This document shows positions 7,687-29,614 of a stretch of 30,784 bases of DNA, piece after piece (position 1 is the first letter of the stretch; each line of letters starts with the position of its first letter). Source of the DNA: Pseudomonadota bacterium. GTDB taxonomy: Bacteria > Bdellovibrionota > FAC87 > UBA2466. The position numbers and the translations under genes are program-made. The DNA lies in NCBI GenBank assembly GCA_043718025.1, contig JAYSWN010000098.1, positions 1 to 30,784 on the forward strand. Reading direction: 5' to 3'. A model generated the notes under the pieces. That model was not told the origin of the DNA. It made no database searches and saw only the letters and a program-made list of their open reading frames with translations.

Positions 7687-7811
7687 CCACATCCCGCAAT
7701 TCGCCAAACCTTCTAAATGTGCTTTCATCACGCGATTTGACGCGCCGCTCTCTGCCCATAACTCCATCGGGATTGAGTTTTCTTTTCACCCTTGGTCGTT
7801 ACAATATCAAA

Positions 7812-13150: not shown

Positions 13151-16100
13151 TTGAAATCGACCGCGTCAAAGCCGCCACTTCTCAATTGGCCGATTCCCCA
13201 TCTCATCACGGGCGCGCTGCTTCAGCTTTCGCTTTTATTTCCCCGAATCTCGCTGGGCGTTTTTAACGGGGTGGCACCCGGCGGAATGCATCCTGACTTT
13301 CCGGCCGTGTTTAAACTGGTCAATAGCAACGATAAACTTTGTAGCGGTGTCTTCATCAGCCCCACTGCAATGCTCACGGCCGCCCACTGCCTCGTCGATG
13401 ATGTCGACGGCGGACTGCTGCTGCACGGCAGCTCCCATCGTTCTCAATTGGTGGTAGCGCGTCCGGGAATTGTCAGCGAGATGCTTGGCAACAAAGGGAT
13501 CGTAGATAGCAAATCAATTAAATACGATCTGGCCGTAGCTTTTTTTCCGCCCGACGCAGCACGCCAGGCGATGGAAGCCTCTCCCCTAGAACCGATTCTA
13601 AGCGAAGCGATGACCGTCGCCGGTTGGGGAGTCACTGATCCGTCCAAGGAGTCAGCTAACGACAAGACTCTCGCTCTCCACGTCGGCTACACCCTTATTT
13701 CTGGCCGTTCGGACCAAAAACGTTTCTTTCGGGTGTCGAGCAATCGGAGCATAGTCACTAAGGACGGAACCAACGCCTCTCCGTTGGGTGGTGATTCCGG
13801 TGGTCCCCTCATTGACACCGCACTCAAAAAAATCGTGGGCATCTGCTCGGCCACTCGAAAAGACGACAAGGCCGACGTCTTTATTGGGGAATACGTCAGT
13901 CTTTACAGTGCGGAGAGCATTCAACTACTGAAAGAGGCGTCAGCAAAACGGCCGGGCGAGATTCCCGCCGCGTTCATCGATGCTCTCCTCCCCAAGCAAA
14001 AAGTATCATCGTCGGCCCCGGATGAGTCGGTCGTCACCACCGCACCGCAACCCGCGGGATCCGCCCCGCCGGCAGCCACTCCTCCCCCCCTCGTAAGTGG
14101 CCGCCCCAAAGCAAGACTGCGGCCCGACTTTCTTCAGCTCGACACTCGTCTGGCGGCAGAGCTCAGCAAGTTGTCGGGCCTGAACGTCCTTCCCGGTCTG
14201 GTCTACACTGACCAAGCCATCGCTGAATGGCGTCCGGATATCCGCGGCACTCTGCTTTCTGAAGGCTCTGTCGACCCCACCGGTACCGGCGAAGAGAGGG
14301 CGCGAGTCGGTTACTCCGTAGATTTCTCTAAAGAGCTTTGGCTCATCACCCAAAACAACTTGCGCTATCTCCTCTGGCGGCAAGACGGAACGCAGAACTT
14401 GCTCGTCGAGTCACTCCGTCATTTCATTCCGGTCAAAGACGGCGTGGTCTATTTCGATGCTGAGTGGATGGCGCATTTTCGCTCGCTAGACGGCAGCAAA
14501 AATAATGCCTACAAACTCAGGGCTTACCTTCATACATTCGATCCCAAATCGGGGCCGACGCCGATCTACCATTACGATTCCACTGAGCAGAAGCTCATCG
14601 TAGCCAATTGGAGTTTCCATCCTACCGCTCCGGTTCCCGATGACGCCCCTCAGTTTGAACCCTTCGAACTCTCCCTCATTGATTTTGTTGCCACCGTTGA
14701 AGACGACAAGCTTCTGCAATTGCATCGCAACTTGAAATGGCCGTTTTTTTTGCGGCCCAATGGCCTCTTTCAGATCGATGAGCCCACTAAGACTTTAAAT
14801 TTCCAGGAGCTAAACTGGCAGACCGGCGAACTGGCCCCTTCTAAAGCCGTACTTTCGTTAGAAGGAAAATATGAAGTTAAGCAGCGCAATGGGGAGTTCA
14901 CCCTTATGCACATCAACGCCGCCGGCCCCCCTACGCCGCTGTTGGTTGACTCGAACGGTCGCTTCGTGCGGCAGACCGGCCGCCAAGATCGTTTCTCTCC
15001 GGTCACCGATCGTACCGATCGTGCGATTGCTGATCTACCCATCAGCGCGGCCGTGATTGACCTGCTCGCACTGCCGCGCAAGGCGCCTCTCTATTCTAGC
15101 TCTCGCGCGAATGCCGCGATGGCAACGGCCCTGGGTGCTTCAAGAAAGACCTGGTCGATTCTTGTGTACGAAGATGGGCAACGCCCCAACGACGTCGTCG
15201 ACGGCTTCGCCCAAGTCATCGCCAATGGAATCCTACGGGTTTCACCTAGCCTTAAGCAGCTGGACCGGGTTTGGCGAATTCCGGGAGACACTGCGTTTAA
15301 CACTAAGGACGCTGAAGATCGGGATGAGACATTTCGCTCTCTCTTCGAAGCGCTCGACGGCACCCAGGCGATGGGTGTTTTTGCCGACTTTCCCACCAAA
15401 CGCTCAGAGGCCATCGGCACCGTCTCAGAAACAGTTGAAAATTTTTGGCACTACTTTGAGACCTGTATCAATGAAGGGACCTGCCGAATTCTCACTACGA
15501 TGCGAGCCCCCGTTTTTTTGGAATTGGCGCGCCTCTTCCCCAATATTGTTAATCAGGCCAACGTCTTTGAACTCCCTCGTTTGGAAAAGGACGAACGCAA
15601 ACAGGTTGCCCAAGTTTTAAGGCGCAACTTGGAACAGGAGTACGCAAAAGTGCTCAGCAACGCCGCGTTTGACAAGGCCCTCGGTTTTGGCGCCGCGGCA
15701 ACCAAAGGGTTACAATCTCCCGATCGCGAAGAAGGTCTATTAAGAGAGTTATTTGATTGGTTTGAACAGACGTCTCCCAATTCATTAGAAATCGCCAGCG
15801 CTTCAGTTGACCGATTTATAGAGCGCGGCAAAACGGATGGATCATCCAAAAAAATAGATATTGAAGGGCTCAGAAAATACCTCAAAGGCAAAATGGTCGG
15901 CCACAGCGACGTAGTCGACAGCATCTGCAATCAGTTAAAACCTCTGGAAAATGGAACTCACTTTGGTCCCATGCCGATCTATTTCACGTTGGTAGGAACT
16001 CCCGGAGTGGGAAAATCGTGGATTGCTGGTCTCATCGCCAACTATCTCACCGGAGAGGGTTCAAACTTATTAATCGATTTTAAGAGTTTCAAGGGATTTG

Positions 16101-16921
16101 ACGCAAACAATCCGGATAAGATTTCCACCGAGCTAAAAAGATCGCCCAATCGCCTTCACGTTGTCACCTTTGATGATGTCGACCAGGCCCACATGAGCGC
16201 TATGGATAAAATTCGCGGGATTTTTACCGACGGGTTCTACGCCAAAGAGACGGCCGATGAGGTGCCTTTCACCAACACCATCGTCATTCTCACCGCAAAC
16301 TGGGGTCAAAACCTAATCCTCCAGGATACAAATTTCGCCAGTGGGGACTTCACCGAAAGTCTGCGTCGCGAAATCGTATTTGATGATTCTGCCACTATAA
16401 ACGTCGACCCCGACCCCACCGGAAAAATCAGCAAGCGAGTCTGGAGTGCCCTGGCGGGAAAACTCTACATCATGAAGCCATTTTCCGAACCAGAACTGCT
16501 TCAATTGGCATTCAAATTTGCTGAGGATCGCCAAGTGGCAATTGCCGGCAGAAGTGGTGGTAAAGAACTTAGCATCCACCCATTAACCCTATTGAAATTT
16601 GTATCCCAGCGGCGTGCCGACACCGCCGGCGCAAGGGACATACAAAACGCATTAGATTTGCAACTCTTTCCCGCTTACGAAAACGCCATTCAGAAACGCG
16701 GGGTTACTAGAGTTGTATTGGTTCCCAACGAAGACAAGATCGTTGCGGTAACCAATCTAGATAAAAGCTTCAGTTATTGGAAAAAGAGCCAGGAGAACGC
16801 GAAGGCAAAAATTATCGGCAATGGGCCCAACCAAGGGCCCAAATGGTATCTGGAGAACGCCGCAAAATGGCATTTAGATGACTGGAAACTCATCGTGACC
16901 CCTCCCAAAGGTAAAAAATGA
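13151..16921 (+). CDS. Trypsin-like (S1) serine protease fused to a Clp/Hsp100-type AAA+ module (degenerate D1, D2 with Walker A)
   Basis: SD GGGAG then TTG start and a hydrophobic leader. Catalytic triad: TAAHC (His 13385-13387), YDLAV, GGDSGGP (Ser 13796-13798). Then a Pro/Ala linker, a beta-rich region and a relic D1 (WSILVYEDGQRPNDVVDGFAQ...GTCRILTT). D2 has MVGHSDVV, GTPGVGKS (15995-16018), VVTFDDVDQAH, FTNTIVILTAN and GARDI. Confidence 0.85.
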   Translation: MKSTASKPPLLNWPIPHLITGALLQLSLLFPRISLGVFNGVAPGGMHPDFPAVFKLVNSNDKLCSGVFISPTAMLTAAHCLVDDVDGGLLLHGSSHRSQLVVARPGIVSEMLGNKGIVDSKSIKYDLAVAFFPPDAARQAMEASPLEPILSEAMTVAGWGVTDPSKESANDKTLALHVGYTLISGRSDQKRFFRVSSNRSIVTKDGTNASPLGGDSGGPLIDTALKKIVGICSATRKDDKADVFIGEYVSLYSAESIQLLKEASAKRPGEIPAAFIDALLPKQKVSSSAPDESVVTTAPQPAGSAPPAATPPPLVSGRPKARLRPDFLQLDTRLAAELSKLSGLNVLPGLVYTDQAIAEWRPDIRGTLLSEGSVDPTGTGEERARVGYSVDFSKELWLITQNNLRYLLWRQDGTQNLLVESLRHFIPVKDGVVYFDAEWMAHFRSLDGSKNNAYKLRAYLHTFDPKSGPTPIYHYDSTEQKLIVANWSFHPTAPVPDDAPQFEPFELSLIDFVATVEDDKLLQLHRNLKWPFFLRPNGLFQIDEPTKTLNFQELNWQTGELAPSKAVLSLEGKYEVKQRNGEFTLMHINAAGPPTPLLVDSNGRFVRQTGRQDRFSPVTDRTDRAIADLPISAAVIDLLALPRKAPLYSSSRANAAMATALGASRKTWSILVYEDGQRPNDVVDGFAQVIANGILRVSPSLKQLDRVWRIPGDTAFNTKDAEDRDETFRSLFEALDGTQAMGVFADFPTKRSEAIGTVSETVENFWHYFETCINEGTCRILTTMRAPVFLELARLFPNIVNQANVFELPRLEKDERKQVAQVLRRNLEQEYAKVLSNAAFDKALGFGAAATKGLQSPDREEGLLRELFDWFEQTSPNSLEIASASVDRFIERGKTDGSSKKIDIEGLRKYLKGKMVGHSDVVDSICNQLKPLENGTHFGPMPIYFTLVGTPGVGKSWIAGLIANYLTGEGSNLLIDFKSFKGFDANNPDKISTELKRSPNRLHVVTFDDVDQAHMSAMDKIRGIFTDGFYAKETADEVPFTNTIVILTANWGQNLILQDTNFASGDFTESLRREIVFDDSATINVDPDPTGKISKRVWSALAGKLYIMKPFSEPELLQLAFKFAEDRQVAIAGRSGGKELSIHPLTLLKFVSQRRADTAGARDIQNALDLQLFPAYENAIQKRGVTRVVLVPNEDKIVAVTNLDKSFSYWKKSQENAKAKIIGNGPNQGPKWYLENAAKWHLDDWKLIVTPPKGKK

Positions 16922-17706
16922 AAATGCTTGCTCACAAACTAACGCTAGTCGCTTTGGGTTTAGCCTTTCACGCCACCGCCCACGAAAACGTCCTCTTCCT
17001 GGTGGACGTCTCCGGAAGCATGGCCGCGCTGTTACCCAACATCGCCACTACCCTTCGAGAGCAGGTCGTCAGTCCGCTACGTCAACAGTCTGGCCAGGGG
17101 CTCATCAGCTTTTCTGGTTGTGGCCGAGGTTTCGTCAATTATTTGGTTCCACTGGCCAAAAACAATGGACAGCAGATGAAAGAGGGCGCCGGAAAACTGC
17201 GGCCCGATGGCGCAACTGACATCGTCGCACCGCTTGAAGTGGCCAGGGAGACCATCCTCAAACAGCTACACGATACACACGAGTGCACCAATATCATCCT
17301 TTTTACCGACAATGAGGACACCTGTGGCAACGGCAATAAACACCACGATGTGCTTAGGGAAATTCAATCTCTTTGTGCGAACTACTCGGTGGATTTCAAT
17401 GTGGATGTGATCACCTCTAGCGTAAATGAAGAGGTTCTCCTTTTCCTCGATGGCATCACCGATATCACCGGCGGAAAAATTTACGACGCGGCGACGGTGG
17501 ACGAAATTGCGGCGCGAATCAAAACGATTGTCGAAGGGTACAAACGCAAGAAGGTAGGAACCCCGATGACGTCCAAAGCGACCACCCCCGAAAAGAAAGT
17601 GGTCGCCGATAAACCGGTTCAAGCGGTGCCCCGTCCCCAACTCAAAAAACAGCCTGCAAGAAGCGGGCAAGATGACAAAAAAGAAAAAAAAGAAGGTGGA
17701 CCATGA
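16918..17706 (+). CDS. Exported vWA-domain protein (MIDAS intact, YwmD-like subgroup)
   Basis: Signal peptide ending AFHATA. MIDAS DVSGS (17005-17019), T in PDGATD, D in IILFTDNEDTCG. Lys/Pro-rich C-tail. ATGA overlap with the upstream stop. Confidence 0.88.
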   Translation: MKMLAHKLTLVALGLAFHATAHENVLFLVDVSGSMAALLPNIATTLREQVVSPLRQQSGQGLISFSGCGRGFVNYLVPLAKNNGQQMKEGAGKLRPDGATDIVAPLEVARETILKQLHDTHECTNIILFTDNEDTCGNGNKHHDVLREIQSLCANYSVDFNVDVITSSVNEEVLLFLDGITDITGGKIYDAATVDEIAARIKTIVEGYKRKKVGTPMTSKATTPEKKVVADKPVQAVPRPQLKKQPARSGQDDKKEKKEGGP

Positions 17707-20306
17707 ACAAGATTTCTATCGTTTTCTCTACACTATTAGTATTCTGCACCCTGTCTCTAGCGGACACGACCGAACGCACCGAGCTAGAAGTAGATCGCAA
17801 TGCCGCGGGTCAGATCACCGCGATTCGCTGGAAAAGCGATGTCGCCCTAAGTGAAGCGGTGACCCCCGAGCTGCTTGAAATCATCACCGCGGATCCGCAA
17901 GCACTCTATGTTTCACCCAATTTCTCTCACGCCTTAGTCAAGCTCCCCTTTGGCACCGAGGGAGCCCTTATGGGTGACGTAGTGCTTTTGCGTCCCGGGG
18001 TGATAACTGGCCTTCCTAAACCAGGGGAAGGCATTATTGGGCAGTCGCCGACCGCTATCTCACTCAATCGATGGGGCTTTTACTATACCCGCAACTCGGG
18101 CTCTGTATTCACAGTGGAACACTACGATTTGGTAAGAAGTGCTTCCGAGATTCTGCAGACACTTGATGCCGGTCAGGTGGGTACCCTACACAATATCAAG
18201 TTGTCAGAAGACGTCGTAACTATCATTAGTGGTGGCACGAGCATCGACTACCGTCCCAATAAACGCCGAGCGCAGTCCACCCTAATTTTTAGCGCGCTGG
18301 CCCGCGATAACATCGACACCATCGAAGGCAGTTTCGGCGGCATCAATCTCACCAAAAGGGCGCTAGATGGCCAGTTGGACCCGGATGAGTCAGAGAGCGC
18401 TTTGGCGATTCAGATGGCTGAGAATATTCACCGCAGCCGAACGCAAAGAAGCGTTCTGCTCTGGGGAATACCCGGTAGCGATACCCAAGGGGTCGTCCAT
18501 CTCTTTGCCCAACGGGTAGCCGAAGCCAAAGAGGGAGATAAGCACTTTGGCTGGTTTGCGGGTTGGAGAGTCTATCAGATGAGTTGGGCCAATCTTAACA
18601 CCGAGGGGTATGTCGACGTCTCCTCTAACAAAACGATCAAACTCATCAACGCCACAAGGCAGAGAAAGGTGATTCTCTTTTTCGACCAAGCGGAACAGCT
18701 GATCGGGCTTGGCTCCAACAAAGACTATCGAAGCGACGTGGCGAGTGTTCTCTTAGGCTCAATGAAGTCAGGCGAAGTTATTATAATTGGCGCCACCACT
18801 TCGGATGGAATGCCCACCATGCGGTCTAATTCCGAAATGTTCAGTAGATTTTTTGAAATTCCACTTCCTGAAGCAAAGGGCGACCGTCTCTTGGCAAAAC
18901 TTCGTCTATCTGCCGACCGAAAAAGGGACGAATCCCGCGTAAACTTTTCGGATGAGTCACTTAAGAAGATCGTGGCCGTCAGCGATAAATATCTGAGCGA
19001 CAGAGGACAGCCGGAAAAGAGTCTGGCCGGCATCGAGGCACTTATCACTGAGTTCACACCACTTCGGCACCTAGACCCCGCCATTGACCCGGAAACCGTC
19101 CCGTTTAGAGACATCACCGAAAACAATGTAATGTCTTGGATATCAAAGGCAGCCAGAATCGGCTCACTTTCCATTGACGGGTCCGAAGCCCTCGCTAAGT
19201 TCGTACTCACTCAGGAGTACAGCGATGCGATGAACCGGCGAATGTCTGGTCAAAACGGCGCCAAAGAGGCCGTGCGCGATGCTCTGCTCGCCATTGCCAA
19301 GGGTAATAAAAAAACTAACTCTCAAGGCAAGGAAGTCGGCATTGAGACTCTGCTCATGGTGGGTCCGTCCGGATCGGGGAAGTCCTACATTCACCAAGTT
19401 TTATCGAAAGTGTTGGCAGAAAAAGACATTCTCTTGCCCTATGAAGAGCCAATGGAAGGCTCCGTTCTCATTGATGGCGATCAGGCCGTTCGTACCCTAC
19501 TGGGAGCGGCGCCTGGATACATTGGATTCGATCCCTCTGGTGAGGGCGGCCTTTTATACCAAAAGGTAAAACGTTCGCCTCAAGCCATTTTGGTGCTTGA
19601 GGAGTTCGACAAGGTCCATCCGTCTATTGACCTGACTCTCTATTCCTTTTTGGACGAGGGGAAAGTCCAAAACGTCACCGGCAAGGTGGCCTGGTTTACC
19701 CGTGGTCTATTCATTCTCACGGCGAATTTCGGTGTCACCGGCTCCGGAGGTTCCACAAACCGCAACGGCGCGGCCGGGCCCGCTAAGCCTGCCCAGTGCG
19801 ACTACATCGATCGCTGGGATCGACACCATCTTTTTCCCGTCGGGGATCCCCTTCATATAGATGACCCGATGGTGGCTAATTGGACCGAAGAGGGTCTCAG
19901 AGCGGCCCTTTTCACTTGCTTGCAAACGAACCAACTTCTTAACCCCCAAATACTTGGCCGAATCGGTCGTTCCAATCTAGTCATTTTTCATCACCTCACG
20001 CGCGCCGACATTCAAACCATTCGTGATCAAGAGATCGCCAAATTGGCGAAAGAATACCTTCAGACTCATGACGCTAAACTGGAATTCACTCCCGAATTTC
20101 TACAATGGCTATTTGATTTCGCGTGGGGCGTCGACGGAATGCTCACCTTTAACTCAGGTGCCCGCGGAATCGTTGACGCGGTGAAAGCAGAAGTCAGCAA
20201 ACCGCTTCTTAAATTTGCGGCCCTTGGCGGTGACCCAGTGAAAAGCAAAACTTGGAAAATTGAACTCACTACAAACCCAGATCAGGCAAAAGTCTCGGTG
20301 AAGTAA
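17703..20306 (+). CDS. Second Clp/Hsp100-type AAA+ protein with signal peptide (degenerate D1, near-canonical D2)
   Basis: Signal peptide MNKISIVFSTLLVFCTLSLA. D1 relic: NLTKRALDGQLDP, LLWGIPGSDT (Walker A Lys lost), ILFFDQ (DE>DQ), IIGATT, SRFFEI, KYLSDRGQPEK. D2: MSGQNGAK, GPSGSGKS (19362-19385), pore loop GAAPGYIG, VLEEFDKVHP, ILTAN, PQILGRI, GARG. ATGA overlap. Confidence 0.88.
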   Translation: MNKISIVFSTLLVFCTLSLADTTERTELEVDRNAAGQITAIRWKSDVALSEAVTPELLEIITADPQALYVSPNFSHALVKLPFGTEGALMGDVVLLRPGVITGLPKPGEGIIGQSPTAISLNRWGFYYTRNSGSVFTVEHYDLVRSASEILQTLDAGQVGTLHNIKLSEDVVTIISGGTSIDYRPNKRRAQSTLIFSALARDNIDTIEGSFGGINLTKRALDGQLDPDESESALAIQMAENIHRSRTQRSVLLWGIPGSDTQGVVHLFAQRVAEAKEGDKHFGWFAGWRVYQMSWANLNTEGYVDVSSNKTIKLINATRQRKVILFFDQAEQLIGLGSNKDYRSDVASVLLGSMKSGEVIIIGATTSDGMPTMRSNSEMFSRFFEIPLPEAKGDRLLAKLRLSADRKRDESRVNFSDESLKKIVAVSDKYLSDRGQPEKSLAGIEALITEFTPLRHLDPAIDPETVPFRDITENNVMSWISKAARIGSLSIDGSEALAKFVLTQEYSDAMNRRMSGQNGAKEAVRDALLAIAKGNKKTNSQGKEVGIETLLMVGPSGSGKSYIHQVLSKVLAEKDILLPYEEPMEGSVLIDGDQAVRTLLGAAPGYIGFDPSGEGGLLYQKVKRSPQAILVLEEFDKVHPSIDLTLYSFLDEGKVQNVTGKVAWFTRGLFILTANFGVTGSGGSTNRNGAAGPAKPAQCDYIDRWDRHHLFPVGDPLHIDDPMVANWTEEGLRAALFTCLQTNQLLNPQILGRIGRSNLVIFHHLTRADIQTIRDQEIAKLAKEYLQTHDAKLEFTPEFLQWLFDFAWGVDGMLTFNSGARGIVDAVKAEVSKPLLKFAALGGDPVKSKTWKIELTTNPDQAKVSVK

Positions 20307-20329
20307 GTAGTTCGGCAATGGAGTAGATC

Positions 20330-22378
20330 GTGAATCGTATTAATAGAAATAAAATCCCAACGGCATTTATCCTCGGACTTGCCTTTTATCTTCCGGTCTA
20401 CGGAATTGACGAAACCAAGGCCCCCCCGGCGACCCTCGCCCAATTGGCGCAGGCGGATCAAAAACAAGACGCGGCTCGAACGGCAATTCTTCAACAACAA
20501 AAAACGGAGCTTCTGGCCATCGACGAACGGCGAACTAAAATTGGCACCGACTTAGACAATGAATTGAAGAAACTGCAGACCGCACGCGAGGAGCTTCGGG
20601 CCACGCATGGCAAGCGCCAGATTGAAAGTGCCGCAAAGATGGCGGCGTTAGACGAAAAGTTCCAAGCGCAGTTGGTTCTGTTGAGAAACAAGCGCAGCCA
20701 AGTCTCCACGGCTAACGCCGCCAAGATTGTTGAACTAGACAAAGAGCTTGCGGTCATTCAGGAACAAGCAAGGGTGCGGTACACCGATGAGGTTAGTAAA
20801 TCGCTAAAGGCTCACGACGAAAAAAGAAAAGGGCAAGAGGCCGCGCGGGCCGCCAGTGAAGCGACGGTCGAAGACGAGAGAGTCGCCGCTTTAAACGCCT
20901 ACTTTGAGGCACTAGCCGCCCACGAAGTTGCCACCCAAGCTGAAACCCAGACGCTGGATCAGGCTAAAAGTGACCAGCTAAGCGAACACGCCACAAAAAC
21001 GGCGACGTTAACCGATCTATACAACGAGCAGTTGGCCAACCTCGCCGCCGAGCGGGCAAAAATCGCCCAAACCTCGTCTGACAAACTATACAGCCTACTG
21101 CAGGTGACCGATCGAACTACGCCGGTGGTGGTTGGTCCGCTGCAGGGAAGCAAAGGGCACTCCCTTTCCGATCTCGCCGAGGGGCGGAAAATAGACATGG
21201 TATTTACCTACGCAGGAGTAACGCTACCCACGACCGATCCCATGACCACAACTCTCTCTAAGTCGATCTCCAACGTTGTCGCCGGAATTTATGTTGAGGG
21301 CTTCTCATTTTCTGAGGACGGTGAAATTCTCTTTTTGGCTAAGCCGCTCACCATTGCTCTTCACTACACGGTTGGCGGCATAAAGCTCAGCTTGCCAACG
21401 GCCGCTGAATTGAAAATGCAGCAGACCATTTTGGCGGCCCTTATTCAAAATCTCTACCGCGTTCCGGAGGAAAGCTTTACTGGCTTAAAATATGAGCCCG
21501 TAGATACGGCGGGAAAAAAGGTTACCTACCGCGATAATCCACGCCTTACCGCCGTAATACGCGCGTTGGTAACAAGAAATAGTGGTGATCTCACGGGGGT
21601 TACTCAGGTCGACGATCAGACCTTTGCCATCGACGGAAAAGCGTTTCGCGTTAATTGGTATTTTACTGACGCCAATAATGCTGTTCAACCCGTGTCCCTC
21701 AAACCAAAGACCGAACAAGATGAAATACAGGCGCGATGGGTAAGGGTCATGAAACGATCCTTCACCCCCATCTCAGTCCCGGCAAAAGTCAGAGCCAAGC
21801 TTGCGACCGCTGCAAGCGTCAGTGGGCCGGCCACCATAAAACTCGCCACACTATTGAAGGCGCCCGACCGCTGTAAGGGGTTAATTTTTGTCCAAAATGG
21901 AACGGGAGAGATTTTGGTGGCCCGGGCCCAGGATAAAGCAATGTTATTCACAGCGATTGGCGTGGACTCTCTAGGGGGGGTCGCCTGCGCCGCAGATTCA
22001 ATTGCCGTTGTTGCCAAAGCAATACGGCGCACCGAACTTCTCAAATTTGATATCAATCAAACCCCGGGAATAGACATTCCCGCCGCTGACTTGGTGGTAA
22101 CCGACTCCCAAGTTGAATCGCGCGGAAACATTGCCACGCTATTCGTTATTCACCAGAACATTCTTAAGATCGCCGTGGTCTCAACGGAGGGAACCTTTAA
22201 AAAGGTTCAAGCCCTCGGCACTGAAAAGGGTAGCTTTCGCGCCTGGTCGGCAGACGAAAAAGGCGTTTGGAATACTCAATTCACTTTCGCCATTCCCTAT
22301 GATGCTTCTGTCGTGAATCCAGACGTTGGCTCAGTGCCTCCGGCCGAGTCCGAACTCACCGTCGCGGAGGGTAAGTGA
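20330..22378 (+). CDS. Exported protein with long N-terminal coiled coil and beta-rich C-terminal region
   Basis: SD GGAG then GTG, hydrophobic leader (TAFILGLAFYLPVYG), about 220 aa of A/E/K/Q/L heptad-like sequence, then a mixed/beta region. No family recognised. Confidence 0.75.
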   Translation: MNRINRNKIPTAFILGLAFYLPVYGIDETKAPPATLAQLAQADQKQDAARTAILQQQKTELLAIDERRTKIGTDLDNELKKLQTAREELRATHGKRQIESAAKMAALDEKFQAQLVLLRNKRSQVSTANAAKIVELDKELAVIQEQARVRYTDEVSKSLKAHDEKRKGQEAARAASEATVEDERVAALNAYFEALAAHEVATQAETQTLDQAKSDQLSEHATKTATLTDLYNEQLANLAAERAKIAQTSSDKLYSLLQVTDRTTPVVVGPLQGSKGHSLSDLAEGRKIDMVFTYAGVTLPTTDPMTTTLSKSISNVVAGIYVEGFSFSEDGEILFLAKPLTIALHYTVGGIKLSLPTAAELKMQQTILAALIQNLYRVPEESFTGLKYEPVDTAGKKVTYRDNPRLTAVIRALVTRNSGDLTGVTQVDDQTFAIDGKAFRVNWYFTDANNAVQPVSLKPKTEQDEIQARWVRVMKRSFTPISVPAKVRAKLATAASVSGPATIKLATLLKAPDRCKGLIFVQNGTGEILVARAQDKAMLFTAIGVDSLGGVACAADSIAVVAKAIRRTELLKFDINQTPGIDIPAADLVVTDSQVESRGNIATLFVIHQNILKIAVVSTEGTFKKVQALGTEKGSFRAWSADEKGVWNTQFTFAIPYDASVVNPDVGSVPPAESELTVAEGK

Positions 22379-23400
22379 GGCCCTTCTTTTTCACAATCGC
22401 CTCCCTGTTATTTTCCAATTCCTTAGTGGGATTTGAGATGGCGCCTTTAAAAGGGACGTTGAGTGAATTCCCTCTTCTCACGCGAAGTAAAAATCAACCG
22501 GCCATGGCGGTTTTAGCCGGCAATTCTCTTATTTTTACCGAGGGCACAAATCTCGACAGCGACAACCCTGAAGACTGCCCGGCGACCGATCTTTATCGAT
22601 ACGATCTCGCCCAAAAAACCGAGACCAGAATCGCCGAAATTAGCTGCGTCATCAATTTGCTATCAGATGGCAAAGTTGCTTACGTGATTACCAAAGATGC
22701 TCAGAAGGTTCTATCCGTCGGCCGAATTACCGATGAAAAGACGTTGGAAATTGAACCTGAAGGTTCACTCGCCCGCATGATCGCAAAGGTGGCCTTTAAA
22801 CGCTCGATCCTCAAGCTACCCAAAGGCAGCGAACTAAAGCAGCTGAACTACGTGATCCGCGACAACGAGCTGAACGCGGTGTTTAAAACCGACACCCATC
22901 TTTTTCTCGACGCCGTGATTTTCGACCAAGCCTCCAAACAGCCGGTCTTGCCGTTCGAGCTTAAAAACGGCGTTGGCTCTTCAGTTGGGTTGAGTGATGG
23001 AAAAATTCTCTACGCCCTTACCGCCGGCGATGGTGCCTGGTTGCGCGTGGTGGAAATGGGGGCCAATGGGGCTAGCGCCACTTTGGGCCATCCACGCCCC
23101 CTCGCCAAGGACTGGACAAAGGCCGGAGTTTTAGAATGGGCCGTGAGAAAACCCCGTTTTCTGGTCGGAGTTCCCGATGGCTTTCTCGTAGCCGATCGCA
23201 CCCCCGAGGTGTTTTCGGAAGCCACCGCGATCTCCTGGTATTGCAGCACCGAAAAACAATTCTACCGACTTAATATCCCCGACCAAGATGTTGGGGGGTT
23301 GAGCTACGTACACGGTGGCGTGTTGGTTTCTAAGCCTATGGCCGGGTCGATCGTTTGGTACGGTAATAAAAGTCCCTTTCAGACTGAGGTGAAAAAGTGA
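22375..23400 (+). CDS. Exported hypothetical protein, possibly beta-propeller
   Basis: GTGA overlap with the upstream stop and a leader MRPFFFTIASLLFSNSLVG. Repeated short strands (SLIFTE, LYRYDL, KVAYVI, KILYAL, GFLVAD, GVLVS, SIVWY) are typical of propeller blades. Confidence 0.65.
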   Translation: MRPFFFTIASLLFSNSLVGFEMAPLKGTLSEFPLLTRSKNQPAMAVLAGNSLIFTEGTNLDSDNPEDCPATDLYRYDLAQKTETRIAEISCVINLLSDGKVAYVITKDAQKVLSVGRITDEKTLEIEPEGSLARMIAKVAFKRSILKLPKGSELKQLNYVIRDNELNAVFKTDTHLFLDAVIFDQASKQPVLPFELKNGVGSSVGLSDGKILYALTAGDGAWLRVVEMGANGASATLGHPRPLAKDWTKAGVLEWAVRKPRFLVGVPDGFLVADRTPEVFSEATAISWYCSTEKQFYRLNIPDQDVGGLSYVHGGVLVSKPMAGSIVWYGNKSPFQTEVKK

Positions 23401-24497
23401 AGAAAAATTCCAGTATTTTGTTTTGTAGTTTCATTCTGTTGGTCCTCGCGCTGATGGGAAGCTGGGCTTCTTTTTCCCACGCTCAAGAGCACAGCGATGA
23501 CACCGCGGCGATTTTAATCACCGAGGCCAGCCTCACCAAGTTTGGAAAAGGAAACGTGGTGGGCTACTTCCCAAAGGCGTTAATTTCGCGAGATCCCACT
23601 CGCCGCAAAAAAGGCTACTTTATTTTTGACGACAGTGCAGAAAGTTTTGAGAAGACCCAAATCCCCCTACAAATCACATTTGAATGGGGCACTAAAACCC
23701 TTGAGCAAAGCTCCAAAGATTGGAAACTGGGGACTCCGGAAACCTTTACCTACGCCTTAGCCACCGACGTGTTTCTCGCTAAATTACGCCTTCTGTTGGC
23801 GGAGAATTCAAAAGTGTTAGCGCCCGACTTTCTGCCCACCGAGCCTTTTACCGGTTTAAAATCGATTGCCAAGGAGACTCCGGTCAGTCGCTACCTCTTA
23901 AAGAAGGGTTCTGAAACCTCATATCGCATGGAGATAGGAGATCGCACTCTGCTGGACGAAAAACACAAGAGCATCAGCCTTCCCGAGGTCGTAAACCAAA
24001 TGGCTTTGTACCAGCAACATTTTAAAACGGTAAATTTACAGTTGCAGATTTTTAAATTGCGGCCCGGTGAACGCCCAAATAACCCTCGACTGGTGCAAGG
24101 CGTAGCGTTGGTTCGGCACCACCATCCCGCCATGCCGGAGGGACGCGTAGTGATCAATTATGGCGCCACCCGCCCCCCGTGGAGCATGGCCACCAACCGA
24201 CTGGAATTTGCCGGCGAGAGTGTTGATTTCGAATTTCCTGCCTCCACATTCATAGAAAATGTAGTTGCGCCATTGCTGGTAGAGAACGGCAAGATCCCGC
24301 TCAAATTCGAATGCGTTATCGGTGATTTTGAAGAGGAGACGGCCTGTAAGAAGAGCAAAGACGGATCAATTACGGTGAAAGGAAATTTAGCACCGGGCGG
24401 ATCACTAGCTTTCATTATCGAGCGGGCCGCCAATGCCAATGAGTCGATTGACGCGTACCGGGATCTTTACCGGGTCGATATTCACACGGCCAAGTAG
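23397..24497 (+). CDS. Exported hypothetical protein
   Basis: GTGA overlap, SD GAGG, signal peptide MKKNSSILFCSFILLVLALMGSWASFSHA. No family recognised. Confidence 0.72.
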   Translation: MKKNSSILFCSFILLVLALMGSWASFSHAQEHSDDTAAILITEASLTKFGKGNVVGYFPKALISRDPTRRKKGYFIFDDSAESFEKTQIPLQITFEWGTKTLEQSSKDWKLGTPETFTYALATDVFLAKLRLLLAENSKVLAPDFLPTEPFTGLKSIAKETPVSRYLLKKGSETSYRMEIGDRTLLDEKHKSISLPEVVNQMALYQQHFKTVNLQLQIFKLRPGERPNNPRLVQGVALVRHHHPAMPEGRVVINYGATRPPWSMATNRLEFAGESVDFEFPASTFIENVVAPLLVENGKIPLKFECVIGDFEEETACKKSKDGSITVKGNLAPGGSLAFIIERAANANESIDAYRDLYRVDIHTAK

Positions 24498-24525
24498 AAA
24501 TCTGCGTCGGAAGGGAATAGGGAAC

Positions 24526-25563
24526 GTGAAGTTATTTTTAATTAGCATCCTGCTTTTGGCCGGTCGACCCAACTTTGCCTTTTCAGAACAAGCGGCGGGC
24601 GTTCCGGGCGACGATTTTGAATCGGATGAAGGTTTTTTAAACGAAAAACTGAAAGAAGTCCGCCTTAGTCTCATTAGTGCCAATACCATATCGATCAATG
24701 GCGTGCAGGTGCCTCCGATGGCCACCCACTACTTTTACGACCAAACCTCGGTTCGCTACGTAGGGGGGCCGGCAGGAACAAGCTCATGGCCGATTTCTCC
24801 TTTTTTTGTAGACTCCCAAACCATTTTCTCTTTACCCGAAAATGGTTTCACGACGAAGTACGGAAACTTTTTGGGTAAGGCGGCGGCAGGAGTTTTTGCC
24901 TACTTCGAATTACTTGACGAGCCGATTGGGATTCAATCGTTTGACAGTCCAGTAGTAGAAGTCCCCACCCTGAGCGAAGCCCAAAAAAAAGAGGCAAACC
25001 AAGATCGTTTCACAACCATCAAGGCTCTATTTGATAACTCAAAGTTGCCAAATCTTTCGACGACAGCCGTTAATTCCGTTTGGGTGGGACGCTGCGCCTT
25101 TAAATCGACTCCCGATGTAGAAACCGGCGCGCTTTTTTCGTTAACCGCGGACGGGACAATGGCTAAACCATTTCTCTACACTGCGGCACGCGCGATGGAT
25201 TTGATCAACGGTAGTGTGGCTGCTCAGGCCGATAGATTCGAGCAGATGGGCGAAAGTTCCATCGCGGCGGCCACTCAACTTCAAACTCAAACCGGGCTTA
25301 AATATAGTCCGCTGAGCGAACGCCCCCTGCAGACTCGTCCATTGGAACTCAATTCCCTCTTCTTTGATTACAAAAAAGAATTTGAACGGGGAATGGTGCG
25401 GATGGGATATCGCCTGCGAGATTATACCGGCCCGACCGGAAGGCGCGTGGTTGTTTTAGAAGGTTACTCTCCTTTTAAAGAAGGCGCTTCGTTCACGCAG
25501 AAAAGAGTTAGTTATCTCGAACCACTTCAATACTGCTACTTCAGCCAGCATTGGAAATGGTAG
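24526..25563 (+). CDS. Exported paralogue 1 of the four-gene 'KALFD...WxGRC...YCYF' family
   Basis: In-frame GTG at 24526 after GGGAATAGGGAA gives signal peptide MKLFLISILLLAGRPNFAFS and avoids overlap with the upstream gene. Shared C-terminal domain from ~24847. Confidence 0.78.
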   Translation: MKLFLISILLLAGRPNFAFSEQAAGVPGDDFESDEGFLNEKLKEVRLSLISANTISINGVQVPPMATHYFYDQTSVRYVGGPAGTSSWPISPFFVDSQTIFSLPENGFTTKYGNFLGKAAAGVFAYFELLDEPIGIQSFDSPVVEVPTLSEAQKKEANQDRFTTIKALFDNSKLPNLSTTAVNSVWVGRCAFKSTPDVETGALFSLTADGTMAKPFLYTAARAMDLINGSVAAQADRFEQMGESSIAAATQLQTQTGLKYSPLSERPLQTRPLELNSLFFDYKKEFERGMVRMGYRLRDYTGPTGRRVVVLEGYSPFKEGASFTQKRVSYLEPLQYCYFSQHWKW

Positions 25564-25591
25564 TGCGTTTTTTTTAATGGAGGAGCTCTCG

Positions 25592-27016
25592 ATGAAAGCT
25601 CATTGGACTAAGTTCTCGATTTTTTTTATCTGCACACTGGCCTCCGCGCGTCCTCCCGGGGGAGGAGGTTACCATGGCAATCCGGCGGCCTCACAGGCAA
25701 TGATGCGAGCCGCTCAATCTAGCGTCCAAAACAACCAACGTATGCGGGAGTCCCTTCAGAGGGCCGCGCAGCATAGCAGTCAATCCAGGCAAAGCGGATA
25801 TGAAGCCCTTCAGCGAGCCCGCTCCTCTTACTCGCCCGCCTACCCAAGTGCCGCTCAGCAGCGGGCCGAAATTCAGCGCTATAGCCCTCAGCCAAGGTAT
25901 TCCGCGCCTTACGTGCCTCCTCAGAGCGTGATTATCGGCCAAGGGAGTCCGTACTCGCAACCGCCCGATTATTTTCCGCAAGAGGATTTTTATTCCGGAC
26001 ATCCGGAATACCCTTCGGCGCGGTCGAAAGGATCAAAGTCTTCGAATCGCTTTTCTATCGACCCTGGCGTGGTCTCAGTTGACGGCGTGCCGGTACCTAG
26101 GGGCGCCACCCACTATGTTTTTGAAAACGGAAATATTCGCTACCTCGGAGGCGAGGCTGTAACGGAATCTCCGACGGCCGCTACACCAAGCGCCCCAAAA
26201 CCTGAACCCGTGCCCCACCTCGTAACGGTTCCGATGCCCGACCGTGTAACGGCTCCAGAGCCTGCCCCGGTTCCTGTCGTCACGCTTCCCACGGAGTCAT
26301 TTCCTGCCCTCTACGGCAAATTTTCTGGCAACAAGGCCGTTGGCATTCATGCCGCTTTGGAATTGCTTAACGAACCCATTGCCCCTCAATCACTTGATGA
26401 GCCGTTGTTAGAGCTGCCGCCCCTCAGTGGTGAGTTGGCAAAGGAGATCACTCGAGATCGGTTGGCAACGATTAAGGCGCTTTTCGACAACTCAGATCTC
26501 ACCATTCATACCGAATTAACCCAGAACTCAAGTTGGACCGGTCGATGTGTTTTTAGATCCACGCCCAATAGCGAAACCGCAGCGGTCATAAATATGTTAG
26601 CCATAGATCCAACGACAAGAATTTCGGTTCTCACCGCGGCTACGGCCACGGAGCTAATGGCAGATCCGGCCAGTGGCCAGGTCAATAAATTCGATATTCT
26701 CAGCGACAGTTTGATTGCCAGCATCAAAGGGGAGCTAGAACAGGCCGATGAAGCGTTAACCACCTTACGCTTAGTCCCTCTGCAAGAACGACCCTTTTTG
26801 AGCGATGCCCTTTTCTTTGACGGTAAAGATGAGTCTAATCAGCATTTAACTCGGCTTGGATTTCGATTGCGCACCTTCAAGGGGCTAGCCGGTAAAACAA
26901 TCTTGGTGACGGAGGCATACTCTCCGTTTAACGCCGGGGTGGCCTTCGCCGGCAAAAGAGTCGCCTACCTCGAGCCCATTCAGTACTGCTACTTCACCAA
27001 AGCAATGAATTGGTAA
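25592..27016 (+). CDS. Exported paralogue 2 of the family
   Basis: SD GGAGG before ATG 25592, signal MKAHWTKFSIFFICTLASA, Q/S/R/Y/P-rich N-region, shared domain from ~26300. Confidence 0.8.
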   Translation: MKAHWTKFSIFFICTLASARPPGGGGYHGNPAASQAMMRAAQSSVQNNQRMRESLQRAAQHSSQSRQSGYEALQRARSSYSPAYPSAAQQRAEIQRYSPQPRYSAPYVPPQSVIIGQGSPYSQPPDYFPQEDFYSGHPEYPSARSKGSKSSNRFSIDPGVVSVDGVPVPRGATHYVFENGNIRYLGGEAVTESPTAATPSAPKPEPVPHLVTVPMPDRVTAPEPAPVPVVTLPTESFPALYGKFSGNKAVGIHAALELLNEPIAPQSLDEPLLELPPLSGELAKEITRDRLATIKALFDNSDLTIHTELTQNSSWTGRCVFRSTPNSETAAVINMLAIDPTTRISVLTAATATELMADPASGQVNKFDILSDSLIASIKGELEQADEALTTLRLVPLQERPFLSDALFFDGKDESNQHLTRLGFRLRTFKGLAGKTILVTEAYSPFNAGVAFAGKRVAYLEPIQYCYFTKAMNW

Positions 27017-27023
27017 TTGAGGC

Positions 27024-28262
27024 ATGAAACTTACCTTTCAAACCGTTCCTCTCTTGAAGTCCTTTCTGATCGCCACCCTATTCTTGCCCCTCCCGGCACC
27101 GGGTGGCCCGCAGCCTCCGTATTCCTATCGATCTTCCGGTAGCAGCCAAGCCGAGATCATGAACGCGCAGAGCGCAGAGAGGTACCGTCAGATCAATGCT
27201 CGGCGAGCGGTTGAGCAGTCGCAAAGAATTGAAGCAAATCGCCAGCTCAATCAACGGCTGGCAAGCGAAGCGGTGCAAAGAGCAAATGGTCAGACCGTGT
27301 TTCCAATCTCACCCCAGTCAAGCTATCGTCGACCGGTTGGCCCCACCACCTACCGACCGCAAAGGATAGTGATCGGAGAAGAGAACATAGTAAAACCTGC
27401 TGTCCTTCCCCCGACGCCAATTGCGAAAGCGAAAGAACGGCCGATTGCGAAAATTGCAGATCGGCCCATTACCACAGCTAAAGACGAATTAACTGCGGAA
27501 GCCCCATTACCAACTAAGACCTTTTCGCGCACCTACCCTAACTACTCAAACAATCCCTTAGCCGGAAATTACGCCCTCTTTCATCTGCTCAACGAGACGA
27601 TTGGCCCGCAGTCGTCGGATGGCCCGGTCATAGAAAATCCAGAAATCGAAGCAGTGTGGGCGGACAGCATCAACCGTGACCGTTTCTCCATGGTTAAGGC
27701 GTTGTTTGATACCGCGGCAATGCCGGAAATAGAAGCTATGCGCAGCCATTCCGCTTGGGTTGGCCGCTGCATTCACCGGTCAACGCCAAATCTTGAAACT
27801 GGAGCCGCGATTGGAATACGGGTGGACAACAACAGCACAAAGATTGTGCTTCTGCTCGCCAGAACGGCGGAGGAATTAATGGTGGTGCGATCCGACGCCC
27901 ACCCCACAAAATACGACGACATGAATGCGACGACCGTTGCGGAAATAACGGCTCGGCTAAAGGACTCCCACCCCGCTCTAAGTGAGTTGAGTCAGGTTCC
28001 GATGGGTAGACGTCCGCATATTCGCGATTCTCTTTTTTTCGACGTGGCGATCCCCTCTGATCCCGGTTCAAGGGTCAAAACCGGCTACCGCCTGCGCATG
28101 GCCCACGGGCCAAATGGCGAGCTCGTGCCTGTGCTGGAAGGTTACGCCCCCTTTGAAGAAGGGACGGCAATGACCGGAAGAAGAGTGGAGTTTCTTGATC
28201 ACATTCGCTACTGCTACTTTACGAAGGCGTACGATTTACATTCATGGAGTGAGTCCAAATGA
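27024..28262 (+). CDS. Exported paralogue 3 of the family
   Basis: Hydrophobic leader, Q/R/S/P-rich N-region, shared domain from ~27522 (KALFD, WVGRC, LFFD, GYRLR, YCYF). Confidence 0.8.
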   Translation: MKLTFQTVPLLKSFLIATLFLPLPAPGGPQPPYSYRSSGSSQAEIMNAQSAERYRQINARRAVEQSQRIEANRQLNQRLASEAVQRANGQTVFPISPQSSYRRPVGPTTYRPQRIVIGEENIVKPAVLPPTPIAKAKERPIAKIADRPITTAKDELTAEAPLPTKTFSRTYPNYSNNPLAGNYALFHLLNETIGPQSSDGPVIENPEIEAVWADSINRDRFSMVKALFDTAAMPEIEAMRSHSAWVGRCIHRSTPNLETGAAIGIRVDNNSTKIVLLLARTAEELMVVRSDAHPTKYDDMNATTVAEITARLKDSHPALSELSQVPMGRRPHIRDSLFFDVAIPSDPGSRVKTGYRLRMAHGPNGELVPVLEGYAPFEEGTAMTGRRVEFLDHIRYCYFTKAYDLHSWSESK

Positions 28263-29614
28263 GCCCACGGTTAATTTGCTTACTATTTATCTTAATCAAT
28301 GCCCCGGCTCTAGCGCAGCAGTCCTATAATGGATACGGATCTAGTAGTGCAAGCGCCCAATGGGCGGCATCTCAAAGGGAAAACGAGCGGCGCAGAGCAG
28401 AAGCCACGGCGCAATGGGCGGCCAACGAAAGAGAGAAAGAGAGACAGCGTTCAGCGGCTACGGCACAGTGGGCGGCCAACGAAAGAGAGAAAGAGAGACA
28501 GCGTTCAGCGGCAAACGCACAATGGGCGGCAACTCAAAGAGAAAACAGAAACCAAACCTATTCAAATTCCTCACAACGGACCGTGGTCGCCAATATCGGT
28601 GGCGTGAATTACTACTCTGCCCCTCCCCCCGTAGCCCATCAAGACAGTGGCGCCGCGTCTGTCGTAAACACCTCAACACCCCAACCGCCAAAGGTTTATC
28701 TCAGCCGAATTGACGTCGGTGTTACTGCCTACAATGGCGTTCCGATTCCCCCGGGGGCCACTCACTACCTGATCCAGAATGGAGTCGCCCGCTACTACGC
28801 CAGAAGTCCCTCCGATCCCAACGTGCCGGTGGAAATAAGCGCATCCAAACCTGCGCCTCAAGCCGAAACTCTGCCGGCACCCGTACCACCAAAAGAGTCG
28901 TACCCTGCACTCTACACAAAATTCTCTAATCAATCGGCGGTGGGAAACTATGCCTACTTTCAATTGTTCGACGAACCCATCGGTCCGCAATCAATCGACA
29001 GCCCCGTTCTAGAAAACCCCGTCGTTGAGGACGCCATGGCCGAAGAGGTGAATAAAAACCACCTCTCCAAAATCAAAGCGCTGTTCGATAACTCGGAGCT
29101 GCCCGCCCCAACGATCTTGGCCCAGAATTCGGCCTGGGGGGGCCGTTGCGTCTTTCGATCGTCACCAGATACGGAAGTCGGAGCGCTGTTAGCCATCGCC
29201 ACCGATAATCAAAAGAGCACGGTAGCCCTTGCTACGGCAGTTGGCCCAACGGGCCTTGGCTCGAGCAGCAGCAACGCCCAAGCCGATAGGTATGTGGGCA
29301 ACGTGGCGAATTCGATTGAGGAGGCCAAACGGCTTATGGCCAACCCAGAAAGAGCAAAGAGTACGCTAAATCACTCCGCATCGGAGGATCGCCCCTTTGC
29401 CCGAGACGCCCTTTTTTTCGATGCCGTCGAAATAGACAAATACAACGGCAAAATCGGCTATCGCCTTCGCACGTTTATCGGACCAACGGGTAAGACTGTG
29501 CTAGTCGCTGAGGCGTACTCGGCATTTAAAGAGGACGCCGATTTTGTCGGAAAGAAAGTCGGGTACCTAGAACCTATCTACTACTGCTACTTCACCCGCG
29601 CGGGAAGTTGGTAG
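28259..29614 (+). CDS. Exported paralogue 4 of the family, with internal 18-aa repeats
   Basis: ATGA overlap, signal MSPRLICLLFILINAPALA, AQWAA repeats, shared domain from ~28901. Confidence 0.8.
   Translation: MSPRLICLLFILINAPALAQQSYNGYGSSSASAQWAASQRENERRRAEATAQWAANEREKERQRSAATAQWAANEREKERQRSAANAQWAATQRENRNQTYSNSSQRTVVANIGGVNYYSAPPPVAHQDSGAASVVNTSTPQPPKVYLSRIDVGVTAYNGVPIPPGATHYLIQNGVARYYARSPSDPNVPVEISASKPAPQAETLPAPVPPKESYPALYTKFSNQSAVGNYAYFQLFDEPIGPQSIDSPVLENPVVEDAMAEEVNKNHLSKIKALFDNSELPAPTILAQNSAWGGRCVFRSSPDTEVGALLAIATDNQKSTVALATAVGPTGLGSSSSNAQADRYVGNVANSIEEAKRLMANPERAKSTLNHSASEDRPFARDALFFDAVEIDKYNGKIGYRLRTFIGPTGKTVLVAEAYSAFKEDADFVGKKVGYLEPIYYCYFTRAGSW
28355..28548 (+). repeat. Coding tandem repeat, 54-bp period (~3.6 copies)
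   Basis: TGGGCGGC recurs at 28361, 28415, 28469 and 28523. Positions 28415-28458 and 28469-28512 are identical over 44 bp. The unit encodes AQWAANEREKERQRSAAT-like sequence. Confidence 0.92.

Follow-up and report, generated by a model that had tools for sequence, protein, structure and literature searches.

Can an AAA+ unfoldase coupled to a protease be an exported machine? The question is raised by a cluster of ten genes at positions 13151–29614 of contig JAYSWN010000098.1 (NCBI GenBank assembly GCA_043718025.1), from a bacterium of the phylum Bdellovibrionota (GTDB lineage FAC87; UBA2466). The contig stretch analysed, hereafter the window, measures 30,784 nt. We name the ten open reading frames (ORFs) of the cluster g1 to g10, and use G### for sampled genomes, L### for loci and P#### for representative proteins. 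The conserved core of the cluster consists of a g1-type Clp-like ATPase, a vWA protein, a g3-type two-ring Clp/Hsp100 protein and a trypsin-fold protease, encoded in fixed order. Judged from its sequences, the cluster is a real, conserved and undescribed variant of the AAA+ unfoldase–protease theme, and its apparently exported state is the surprise. As a whole, it could plausibly, though far from certainly, be a lineage-restricted, Sec-exported Clp-like unfoldase/vWA/serine-protease module of Bdellovibrionota that is driven by ATP and acts where ATP is available, for example in prey.

Gene order and distribution of the cluster

The ten ORFs are co-directional on the plus strand. Start and stop codons overlap by 4 bp at five junctions (g1/g2 at 16918, g2/g3 at 17703, g4/g5 at 22375, g5/g6 at 23397 and g9/g10 at 28259), and with g7 starting at the GTG codon at 24526 the remaining intergenic gaps measure 23, 28, 13 and 7 bp. 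The longest ORF of g7 begins at 24433 and overlaps g6 by 65 bp; with the alternative GTG start, the compact layout of the original prediction (ten co-directional ORFs, five 4-bp overlaps and other gaps below about 30 bp) is reproduced. For g1, the TTG at 13151 is the earliest start codon past an in-frame stop and has an AGGGAG ribosome-binding site upstream. Public gene calls trim the leaders of g1 and g6 by starting at internal ATG codons further downstream (1211 and 347 aa, respectively); the homology of orthologues to g1 and g6 reaches upstream of these starts, into the trimmed parts 13151–13285 and 23397–23453. Because the leaders are cut off, automated localisation predictions on the public g1 and g6 records would miss export. 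In a consensus scan, plus-strand terminators within the cluster did not exceed the level of shuffled sequence, and an Rfam scan of the window matched no family. The four sequencing runs listed as holding this DNA are all sediment metagenomes of one study, with no RNA run listed.

Of 401 genomes sampled from the phylum, 10, the window's own included, contain the middle region of g1 (residues 330–900) that is specific to the system. Leaving that genome out, it was found in 8 of 33 genomes of the window's family and in 1 of 4 of a second family of the same order. The other families searched had none (for example, 0/100, 0/58 and 0/53), and a third genome of the window's genus, which is 77% complete, was not matched. 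Among 1.84 billion representative proteins, a profile of this region recovered 42 at E <= 0.001, of which 25 reached E <= 1e-30, and the ten g1-family representatives that were looked up are all metagenome sequences from clusters of one or two members. With so few matches among the genomes and the 1.84 billion representatives, the g1 family is evidently real but very rare. Word-indexed protein searches turned up close relatives and nothing further, with four sequences for the g1 middle region, five for the paralogue family of g7–g10 and three for the g6 family; metagenome locus scans with alignment A1 and then with P0005 yielded no relative.

Loci from other genomes were compared by tblastn, BLASTP and family hidden Markov models. 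Two genomes of the window's genus, G001 and G002, share the window's arrangement including the fusion of trypsin to g1; G001 encodes two g7–g10-type paralogues vs four in the window, its fetched contig ending about 930 bp past the second. In G004, G025, G012 and G156, which belong to other genera or another family, a g1-type protein of about 1000 aa without trypsin, a vWA protein and a g3-type protein come first, followed by a small, weakly Trypsin_2-like gene, one or two g5-like genes, a g6-like gene and a PF00089 trypsin. G025 departs from this scheme, as the stretch fetched holds Trypsin_2-type genes only and no PF00089 trypsin. G011 was seen as fragments only, with a g1-type, a g3-type, a small trypsin-like and a g5-like gene. 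A reduced variant occurs in G146 (L020:4251-11652, plus strand), where a g1-like protein of 802 aa without the second AAA+ module (D2) is encoded together with two g5-like proteins, a g6-like and a trypsin-like protein; there is no vWA or g3-type gene in the 20 kb fetched.

Via weak profile matches we also reached a sister family of g1-type proteins in which the P-loop of the first AAA+ module (D1) is intact. When P0034 was searched against the phylum, full-length relatives appeared in 2 of the 401 genomes, G282 and G173, each with one relative over nearly the whole of P0034 and a second locus that is less complete or lower-scoring; in the other 112 genomes with P0034 matches, these lie over ClpA-like ORFs only. 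All four loci of G282 and G173, which represent two more distant families, encode g1-type, vWA, g3-type and trypsin proteins in this order. Counting both searches, the four-part core is found in 12 of the 401 sampled genomes, from four families, and the g5 and g6 families are conserved within two families. Two different fusions join core components: trypsin is fused to g1 in G000, G001 and G002 as well as in the representatives P0007 and P0010, and vWA is fused to the g3-type protein at L033:5794-9051, in one protein of 1085 aa (VWA, E 3.6e-11; AAA_2, E 3.3e-21). Given two independent fusions, the fixed order and the translational coupling, a functional unit is the only reasonable reading. The original prediction was to fall if homologues were never syntenic elsewhere; instead, the same order recurs in other genomes.

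Domain architecture of the core proteins

g1 consists of a leader (residues 1–35), an S1 trypsin-fold protease (about 36–300), a proline-rich linker, an N-domain plus degenerate D1 (324–905) and a D2 plus D2-small domain (906–1256). The Pfam family Trypsin (PF00089) matches residues 49–241 with E 9.1e-12 (45.7 bits vs a cut-off of 20.6), AAA and AAA_2 match weakly at 947–1062, and the same search gave no PF02861 (Clp_N) match. With the motifs TAAHC, YDLAV and GDSGG all in place, the His-Asp-Ser triad of the protease is intact, and its His and Ser are conserved in all seven aligned cluster trypsins. Only hhalign detected the D1 of g1, aligning positions 307–594 to positions 198–488 of the g3 D1 with a probability of 95.6%; Clp D1 domains are weak matches of the g1 mid-region profile. 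The D2 keeps its Walker A motif, FDD or LDD replaces DE in all orthologues, and the pore loop is absent. Furthermore, the finger arginine is lost or shifted in g1 of the window's genus, and the sensor-2 Arg is lost in G001 and G002. By these motifs, g1 is an old paralogue of g3, a predicted Clp-like protein with two tiers, of which the first ring is dead, and it retains nucleotide-binding motifs only. Because it lacks the catalytic Glu and the pore loop and its first ring is dead, it would not be a second motor and is best read as a nucleotide-binding paralogue. A different N-terminal extension occurs in the sister family, where the g1-type protein at L032:6853-10479 (plus strand) carries an N-terminal FGE-sulfatase domain in addition to a leader.

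The second gene encodes a vWA protein (Pfam VWA_2, E 3.6e-8). Its metal-ion-dependent adhesion site (MIDAS) is complete, as DxSGS, T100/D101 and D131 are invariant in all five orthologues, and C68 and C136 are likewise invariant. Pfam thus bears out both the vWA domain of g2 and the trypsin domain of g1, as originally predicted. A complex prediction of g3 (residues 40–867) with the vWA domain of g2 (22–190) scored 0.00 vs a mark of 0.32, which gives no answer, and this result was not used.

g3 matches AAA_2 at 549–680 (E 1.8e-19), AAA at 287–378 (E 1.9e-10) and ClpB_D2-small (E 1.1e-4). An N-domain of about 190 aa (residues ~21–210) is specific to the system and stands in the place of Clp_N; no PF02861 match was obtained for g3, and the ClpB M-domain is gapped in the alignment with the genome's own ClpB. 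In D1, both GK[ST] and DE are missing in 6/6 orthologues; the ClpA and ClpB encoded by this genome show GVGKT and IDE there. The D2, in contrast to this dead first ring, keeps GPSGxGK[ST], [ED]E, the sensor-1 residue N675, the Arg finger R753 (GRI) and the pore loop PGY[IV]GF; sensor-2 reads GAR in five of the six orthologues and GAG in one. These D2 motifs hold across orthologues that are 23–67% identical to the window's g3 and agree with the genome's own ClpA and ClpB. A conserved insertion of 45–60 aa follows sensor-1 at the site where the genome's ClpA-like protein has 'SIGI', a position that we take to be the ClpP-docking loop of ClpA. Against solved structures, the g3 family profile matched ClpB (1.5e-70), and also ClpC, ClpA, Hsp104, Plasmodium HSP101 (6e10, 6e11) and human CLPB, aligning over both rings of ClpA, ClpB and ClpC. 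Its motifs mark g3 as a putative ClpA-like two-ring Hsp100 without M-domain, with a dead first and a motif-complete second ring.

In the sister family, g1-type and g3-type proteins both have a DE Walker B; a g3-type protein at L031:6086-9724 (minus strand) has a leader and contains GxxGxGKT and a DE Walker B in each of its three AAA modules. A D2 tree of 33 sequences, unrooted and with two rows on long branches, separates g1-type (100/99), g3-type (97/94) and housekeeping Clp sequences (100/99). As the tree splits both exported ATPase lineages from housekeeping Clp, they appear to be old and to have been inherited together.

No protein of the cluster reached an NCBIfam cut-off: the best score was that of g3 against ClpA (137.4 bits vs 993), and the top score of g1 was 30.6 bits vs a cut-off of 885. 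PADLOC-DB 2.0 returned only generic AAA-region matches (DolB, PDC-M37B) for g1 and g3 and none for the other 8/10 proteins. Of the two Clp-type AAA+ ATPases originally proposed, g3 with its motif-complete D2 stands, and g1 is better seen as its paralogue than as a second motor; likewise, the claim of a built-in protease holds for the trypsin–g1 fusion of the window's genus, the trypsin being a separate gene elsewhere.

Leaders, accessory proteins and neighbouring genes

Basic-then-hydrophobic leaders, called by a home-made heuristic, begin all ten window ORFs, in line with the original prediction, and 60/60 evaluable cluster ORFs of eight genomes; 5 of 65 ORFs had been dropped from this count as 5'-truncated or of ambiguous start. 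The mean net charge is +1.35 ahead of the hydrophobic core and -0.7 behind it, and compared with the next 15 residues the n-region of the 60 ORFs is more positive in 43 cases, equally charged in 8 and less positive in 9. This charge distribution fits an orientation with the N-terminus in and the C-terminus out. The uncharged stretch has a median of 17 residues, within which the hydrophobic cores look shorter, and AXA-like sites follow; in g3 orthologues, the likely cleavage site has small residues at -3 and -1 in 7/7 cases. Consistent with export, the leaders are kept in orthologues just 23–30% identical, and sister-family members with up to three intact AAA modules (DE Walker B) still carry them; the genome's own ClpA has no leader segment. 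A twin-arginine (Tat) signal was rejected, as the leaders have no RR motif, and so was a lipoprotein signal as a general feature, since an LVAC box occurs in one g5 orthologue only. Among the non-cluster ORFs of the window, 6 of the 9 tested also start leader-like.

The junction between leader and protease in g1 is the strongest single argument for export. The leader ends immediately ahead of VFNG/IFNG, where the separate trypsin of G004 has IIGG. In trypsin-fold proteases, the activating N-terminus sits at such a position after cleavage. Maturation of the protease would require g1 to be cleaved at VFNG/IFNG, and therefore the ATPase domain, as part of the same single chain, would be exported too. 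Conserved Cys pairs in g2, g5, g6 and g7–g10 point to export likewise.

No Pfam family matched g4 to g10, i.e., seven of the ten proteins. The sole BLAST relative of g4 is found in G001 (55% identity); it had no Pfam or NCBIfam match, and the ESM Atlas gave leads below 0.9 only, for its C-terminal half. According to its AlphaFold2 model (pLDDT 76, pTM 0.78), g5 is a predicted beta-propeller: the Foldseek matches are all beta-propellers, with E ~1e-7 and TMq ~0.5. Its C68 and C91 are nearly invariant, and orthologues exist in G001, G004, G025, G012, G156, G146 and G011. Orthologues of g6 were found in the same genomes except G011, the one in G004 having a C-terminal PDZ domain (E 3.7e-5); no fold of g6 was recognisable by the means used, and the ESM Atlas had no usable match.

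The four-paralogue array of the original prediction is present, with g7–g10 sharing 37–43% mutual identity, yet it is a feature of the genus and not of the core. Each paralogue has a leader, a variable Gln/Arg-rich stretch and a C-terminal domain with two invariant Cys; g7 shows the motif 'INGVxVPxGATHY' and WxGRC...YCYF in the C-terminal domain. The AlphaFold2 model of g7, built from an 8-row alignment, is poor (pLDDT 49). A small 8-stranded beta-barrel was considered for it, with designed barrels, nitrobindin-like proteins, TbpB/HpuA-type surface lipoprotein barrels and OmpA/OmpW-type barrels among the structural matches; the best Z of 6.2 lies below the noise level of Z 8, and no fold was assigned. 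In g10, a tandem repeat at 28406–28549 (plus strand) comprises 2.7 units of 54 bp with 88% match, each encoding an 18-aa unit rich in Gln, Trp, Ala, Asn, Glu and Arg. Gln/Arg-rich stretches resembling this repeat were also noticed in g8, g9 and long proteins of other loci. By BLASTP and word-indexed protein search, g4 and g7–g10 have no relatives outside the window's genus, and because of this confinement we regard them as accessories. Table 1 lists the ten ORFs.

Table 1. The ten ORFs of the cluster and their main features (window coordinates)
ORF	Length	Position	Strand	Features
g1	1256 aa	13151..16921	+	leader, trypsin, degenerate D1, D2 AAA
g2	262 aa	16918..17706	+	leader, vWA with MIDAS, Lys/Pro/Glu-rich tail
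g3	867 aa	17703..20306	+	leader, own N-domain, degenerate D1, intact D2
g4	682 aa	20330..22378	+	leader, Gln/Ala/Glu-rich probable coiled-coil N-terminal half, C-terminal half without family
g5	341 aa	22375..23400	+	leader, predicted beta-propeller (family E)
g6	366 aa	23397..24497	+	leader, family F domain, conserved Cys pair
g7	345 aa from GTG	24526..25563	+	shortest paralogue of g7–g10
g8	479 aa	25577..27016	+	paralogue, N-terminal region Gln/Arg/Ser-rich
g9	412 aa	27024..28262	+	paralogue of g7–g10
g10	451 aa	28259..29614	+	paralogue with 18-aa tandem repeat

Upstream of the cluster, at 2599–4212 (plus strand), the window encodes a sulfite-oxidase-type molybdoenzyme (Oxidored_molyb and Mo-co_dimer) fused to C-terminal cytochrome c domains and preceded by a leader. 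It is followed at 4333–7686 (plus strand) by an ORF of 1117 aa with a leader-like N-terminus, internal hydrophobic stretches and no Pfam or NCBIfam family, the end of which overlaps the longest ORF of a ceramidase gene. The latter (7644–9815, plus strand), about 3 kb upstream of the cluster, encodes a neutral/alkaline ceramidase (PF04734, E 1.6e-161) with its C-terminal domain; an internal start would give it a signal-like leader, and the enzyme is uncommon in bacteria. Three small ORFs at 9820–10638 (minus strand), 10733–11266 (minus strand) and 11567–12025 (plus strand) have leader-like starts and no Pfam or NCBIfam match.

Known relatives and alternative readings

Among known machines, the class I Clp/Hsp100 unfoldases, ClpA in particular, come closest to g3: they share two AAA+ modules per chain, the absence of an M-domain, the pore loop PGY[IV]GF and D2-small, and the g3 family profile matches solved ClpB, ClpC and ClpA with E from 1e-54 to 1e-70. 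As in ClpAP, the unfoldase gene stands beside a serine protease gene. However, g3 differs from ClpA by its leader, the lack of Clp_N, a D1 without Walker A and B and the insertion at the 'SIGI' site, it stays far under the NCBIfam cut-off for the ClpA equivalog, and the partner protease has a monomer-type S1 trypsin fold instead of being ClpP. HtrA/DegP proteases are likewise exported and of trypsin fold, and one g6 orthologue recalls them by its PDZ domain; they are, however, independent of ATP and have a PDZ domain of their own, whereas here a PF00089-type protease is linked to AAA+ ATPases.

In RavA–ViaA and CbbQ–CbbO, an AAA+ ATPase is encoded beside a vWA protein with a MIDAS. Published work on NorQ/NorD describes the same neighbourhood of a MoxR AAA+ gene and a vWA protein gene. 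All three pairs resemble the present cluster in this respect, but they are cytoplasmic single-ring MoxR systems for cofactor insertion or enzyme activation, without protease or leader. A broader likeness is to the vWA–MoxR ternary systems, for which the accessible text of PMC7159879 describes the joint encoding of an AAA+ NTPase with a vWA protein, a beta-propeller, peptidase-type components and variable extras. The vWA domain with MIDAS that is characteristic of these systems is found in g2 and its orthologues. In contrast to them, the present ATPases belong to the Clp type instead of MoxR (g1 and g3 had no MoxR-family Pfam match, all significant matches falling to AAA_2 and Clp families), the propeller is a separate protein and not fused to vWA as in the accessible text, every component has a leader, and the carriers are Bdellovibrionota, which that text does not mention.

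Clp-type AAA+ proteins targeted to non-cytosolic compartments are known from eukaryotes. Plasmodium HSP101 is part of the PTEX translocon. Human CLPB resides in the intermembrane space of mitochondria, and TorsinA in the endoplasmic reticulum (ER), according to published accounts. HSP101, CLPB/SKD3 and the Torsins differ from the present proteins in being eukaryotic, in acting in compartments supplied with ATP and in having no coupling to a vWA or S1 protease. For g1-type relatives, Pfam Torsin (PF06309) scored borderline around its cut-off of 27 bits (P0016, 26.9; P0018, 28.9; P0032, 30.6); g1 and g3 of the window had no Torsin match at E <= 0.01, and no Torsin chain was among the solved structures matched by the g1 D2 region or by P0032. 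The literature searched holds no description of such a system and no exported bacterial Clp-type ATPase; in the comparative-genomics paper PMC11656739, the terms AAA, Clp, von Willebrand, trypsin, ATPase and VWA have 0 occurrences. With neither a PADLOC system, an NCBIfam family at cut-off nor a paper, the original statement that no system of this composition has been described still stands.

If the module is exported and driven by ATP, as we tentatively prefer, a g3 hexamer would, after export, use ATP to unfold and thread proteins, and g1 would dock on or beside the g3 ring and keep the protease close. The vWA protein g2, the propeller g5 and g6, with g4 and g7–g10 in addition in the window's genus, would bind targets or surfaces. 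The producer's periplasm is without ATP, and for this reason action outside the producer would be most likely. The site would be an ATP-containing compartment, which for a Bdellovibrio-like predator could be the prey cell or its permeabilised envelope; in prey, the machine would assist in taking prey proteins apart. Several observations weigh against this proposal. The leader heuristic also passes a cytoplasmic-looking control ORF (760–2079), the carriers are all uncultured genomes whose predation is assumed from taxonomy, and the cluster contains no dedicated secretion genes, so that passage beyond the periplasm is unsupported. Moreover, the ATPase sites are eroding, with D1 dead in both g1 and g3, DD for DE in g1 and sensor-2 Arg lost in G001 and G002, and the G146 variant is without D2, vWA and g3; erosion and reduced variant fit a compartment without ATP.

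Such a compartment is what an unlikely alternative supposes, namely an ATP-independent assembly in the producer's periplasm or on its outer surface, in which the Clp-like folds would act as rings or as scaffolds for proteases and binding modules. Its roles would possibly be adhesion, envelope remodelling or protein quality control, with nucleotide loaded before export or not at all. Besides the textbook lack of ATP in the periplasm and the progressive loss of ATPase motifs in this branch, it would explain why G146 and several representatives of ~800–880 aa (P0019–P0028) keep the g1 N-domain and dead D1 without an ATPase while the beta-propeller, g6-like and trypsin genes are retained; the PDZ domain of one g6 orthologue also recalls ATP-independent periplasmic proteases. 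However, the catalytic and pore-loop residues of the g3 D2 are all conserved at 23–67% identity, and sister-family proteins, in which as many as three AAA modules with DE are intact, still keep their leaders. Without ATP turnover, motif conservation of this kind would be difficult to account for. The ATP problem would also vanish if the catalytic parts faced the cytoplasm, as in a membrane-tethered system for conflict or defence. Such a system, with uncleaved anchors and a trypsin effector, would be the Clp-type equivalent of the vWA–MoxR ternary systems; we rate it as rather improbable. The combination of NTPase, vWA, beta-propeller and trypsin-like peptidase is indeed the theme of those systems in the accessible text of PMC7159879, and the lineage-specific, variable g7–g10 array resembles diversifying conflict components. 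The leaders speak differently: their charge bias in 43 of 60 ORFs favours N-in/C-out, short hydrophobic cores with AXA-like sites are what cleaved signals, not anchors, typically show, and the activating N-terminus of the protease directly follows the leader. Cys pairs are conserved in five families, the ATPases are of Clp and not of MoxR type, PADLOC found generic AAA matches only, and the words 'signal peptide', 'secreted' and 'Bdellovibrio' are absent from the accessible text of Kaur et al. (PMC7159879).

That the cluster is no system at all, merely unrelated secreted proteins that happen to be neighbours in a genome rich in exported proteins, is highly improbable. The leader-like starts of six of nine other ORFs in the window and the lack of relatives of g4 and g7–g10 beyond the genus would be expected in that case, but not an order conserved over four families, two independent fusions and five coupling overlaps; for g1, g2, g3, the trypsin, g5 and g6, this explanation is largely refuted. 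Returning to the exported, ATP-driven module, its most far-reaching form would be the first exported bacterial ATP-dependent Clp-type unfoldase–protease, delivered by a predator and run on prey ATP, i.e., a secreted 'proteasome' as a feeding weapon, which we consider possible, if doubtful. Bolder still, and less likely, is the idea that the exported Clp-D2-like clade may be related to the stock of the eukaryotic ER-lumenal Torsins.

By common understanding, AAA+ unfoldases work only in compartments that contain ATP, and a conserved module that looks exported challenges this rule. Either some extracytoplasmic site would offer usable ATP, for example the inside of the prey while predation goes on, or AAA+ rings would be used outside the cell independently of nucleotide. 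The module offers a natural case of an unfoldase paired with a protease other than ClpP, and it is a testable candidate for how Bdellovibrio-like predators may take apart folded prey proteins.

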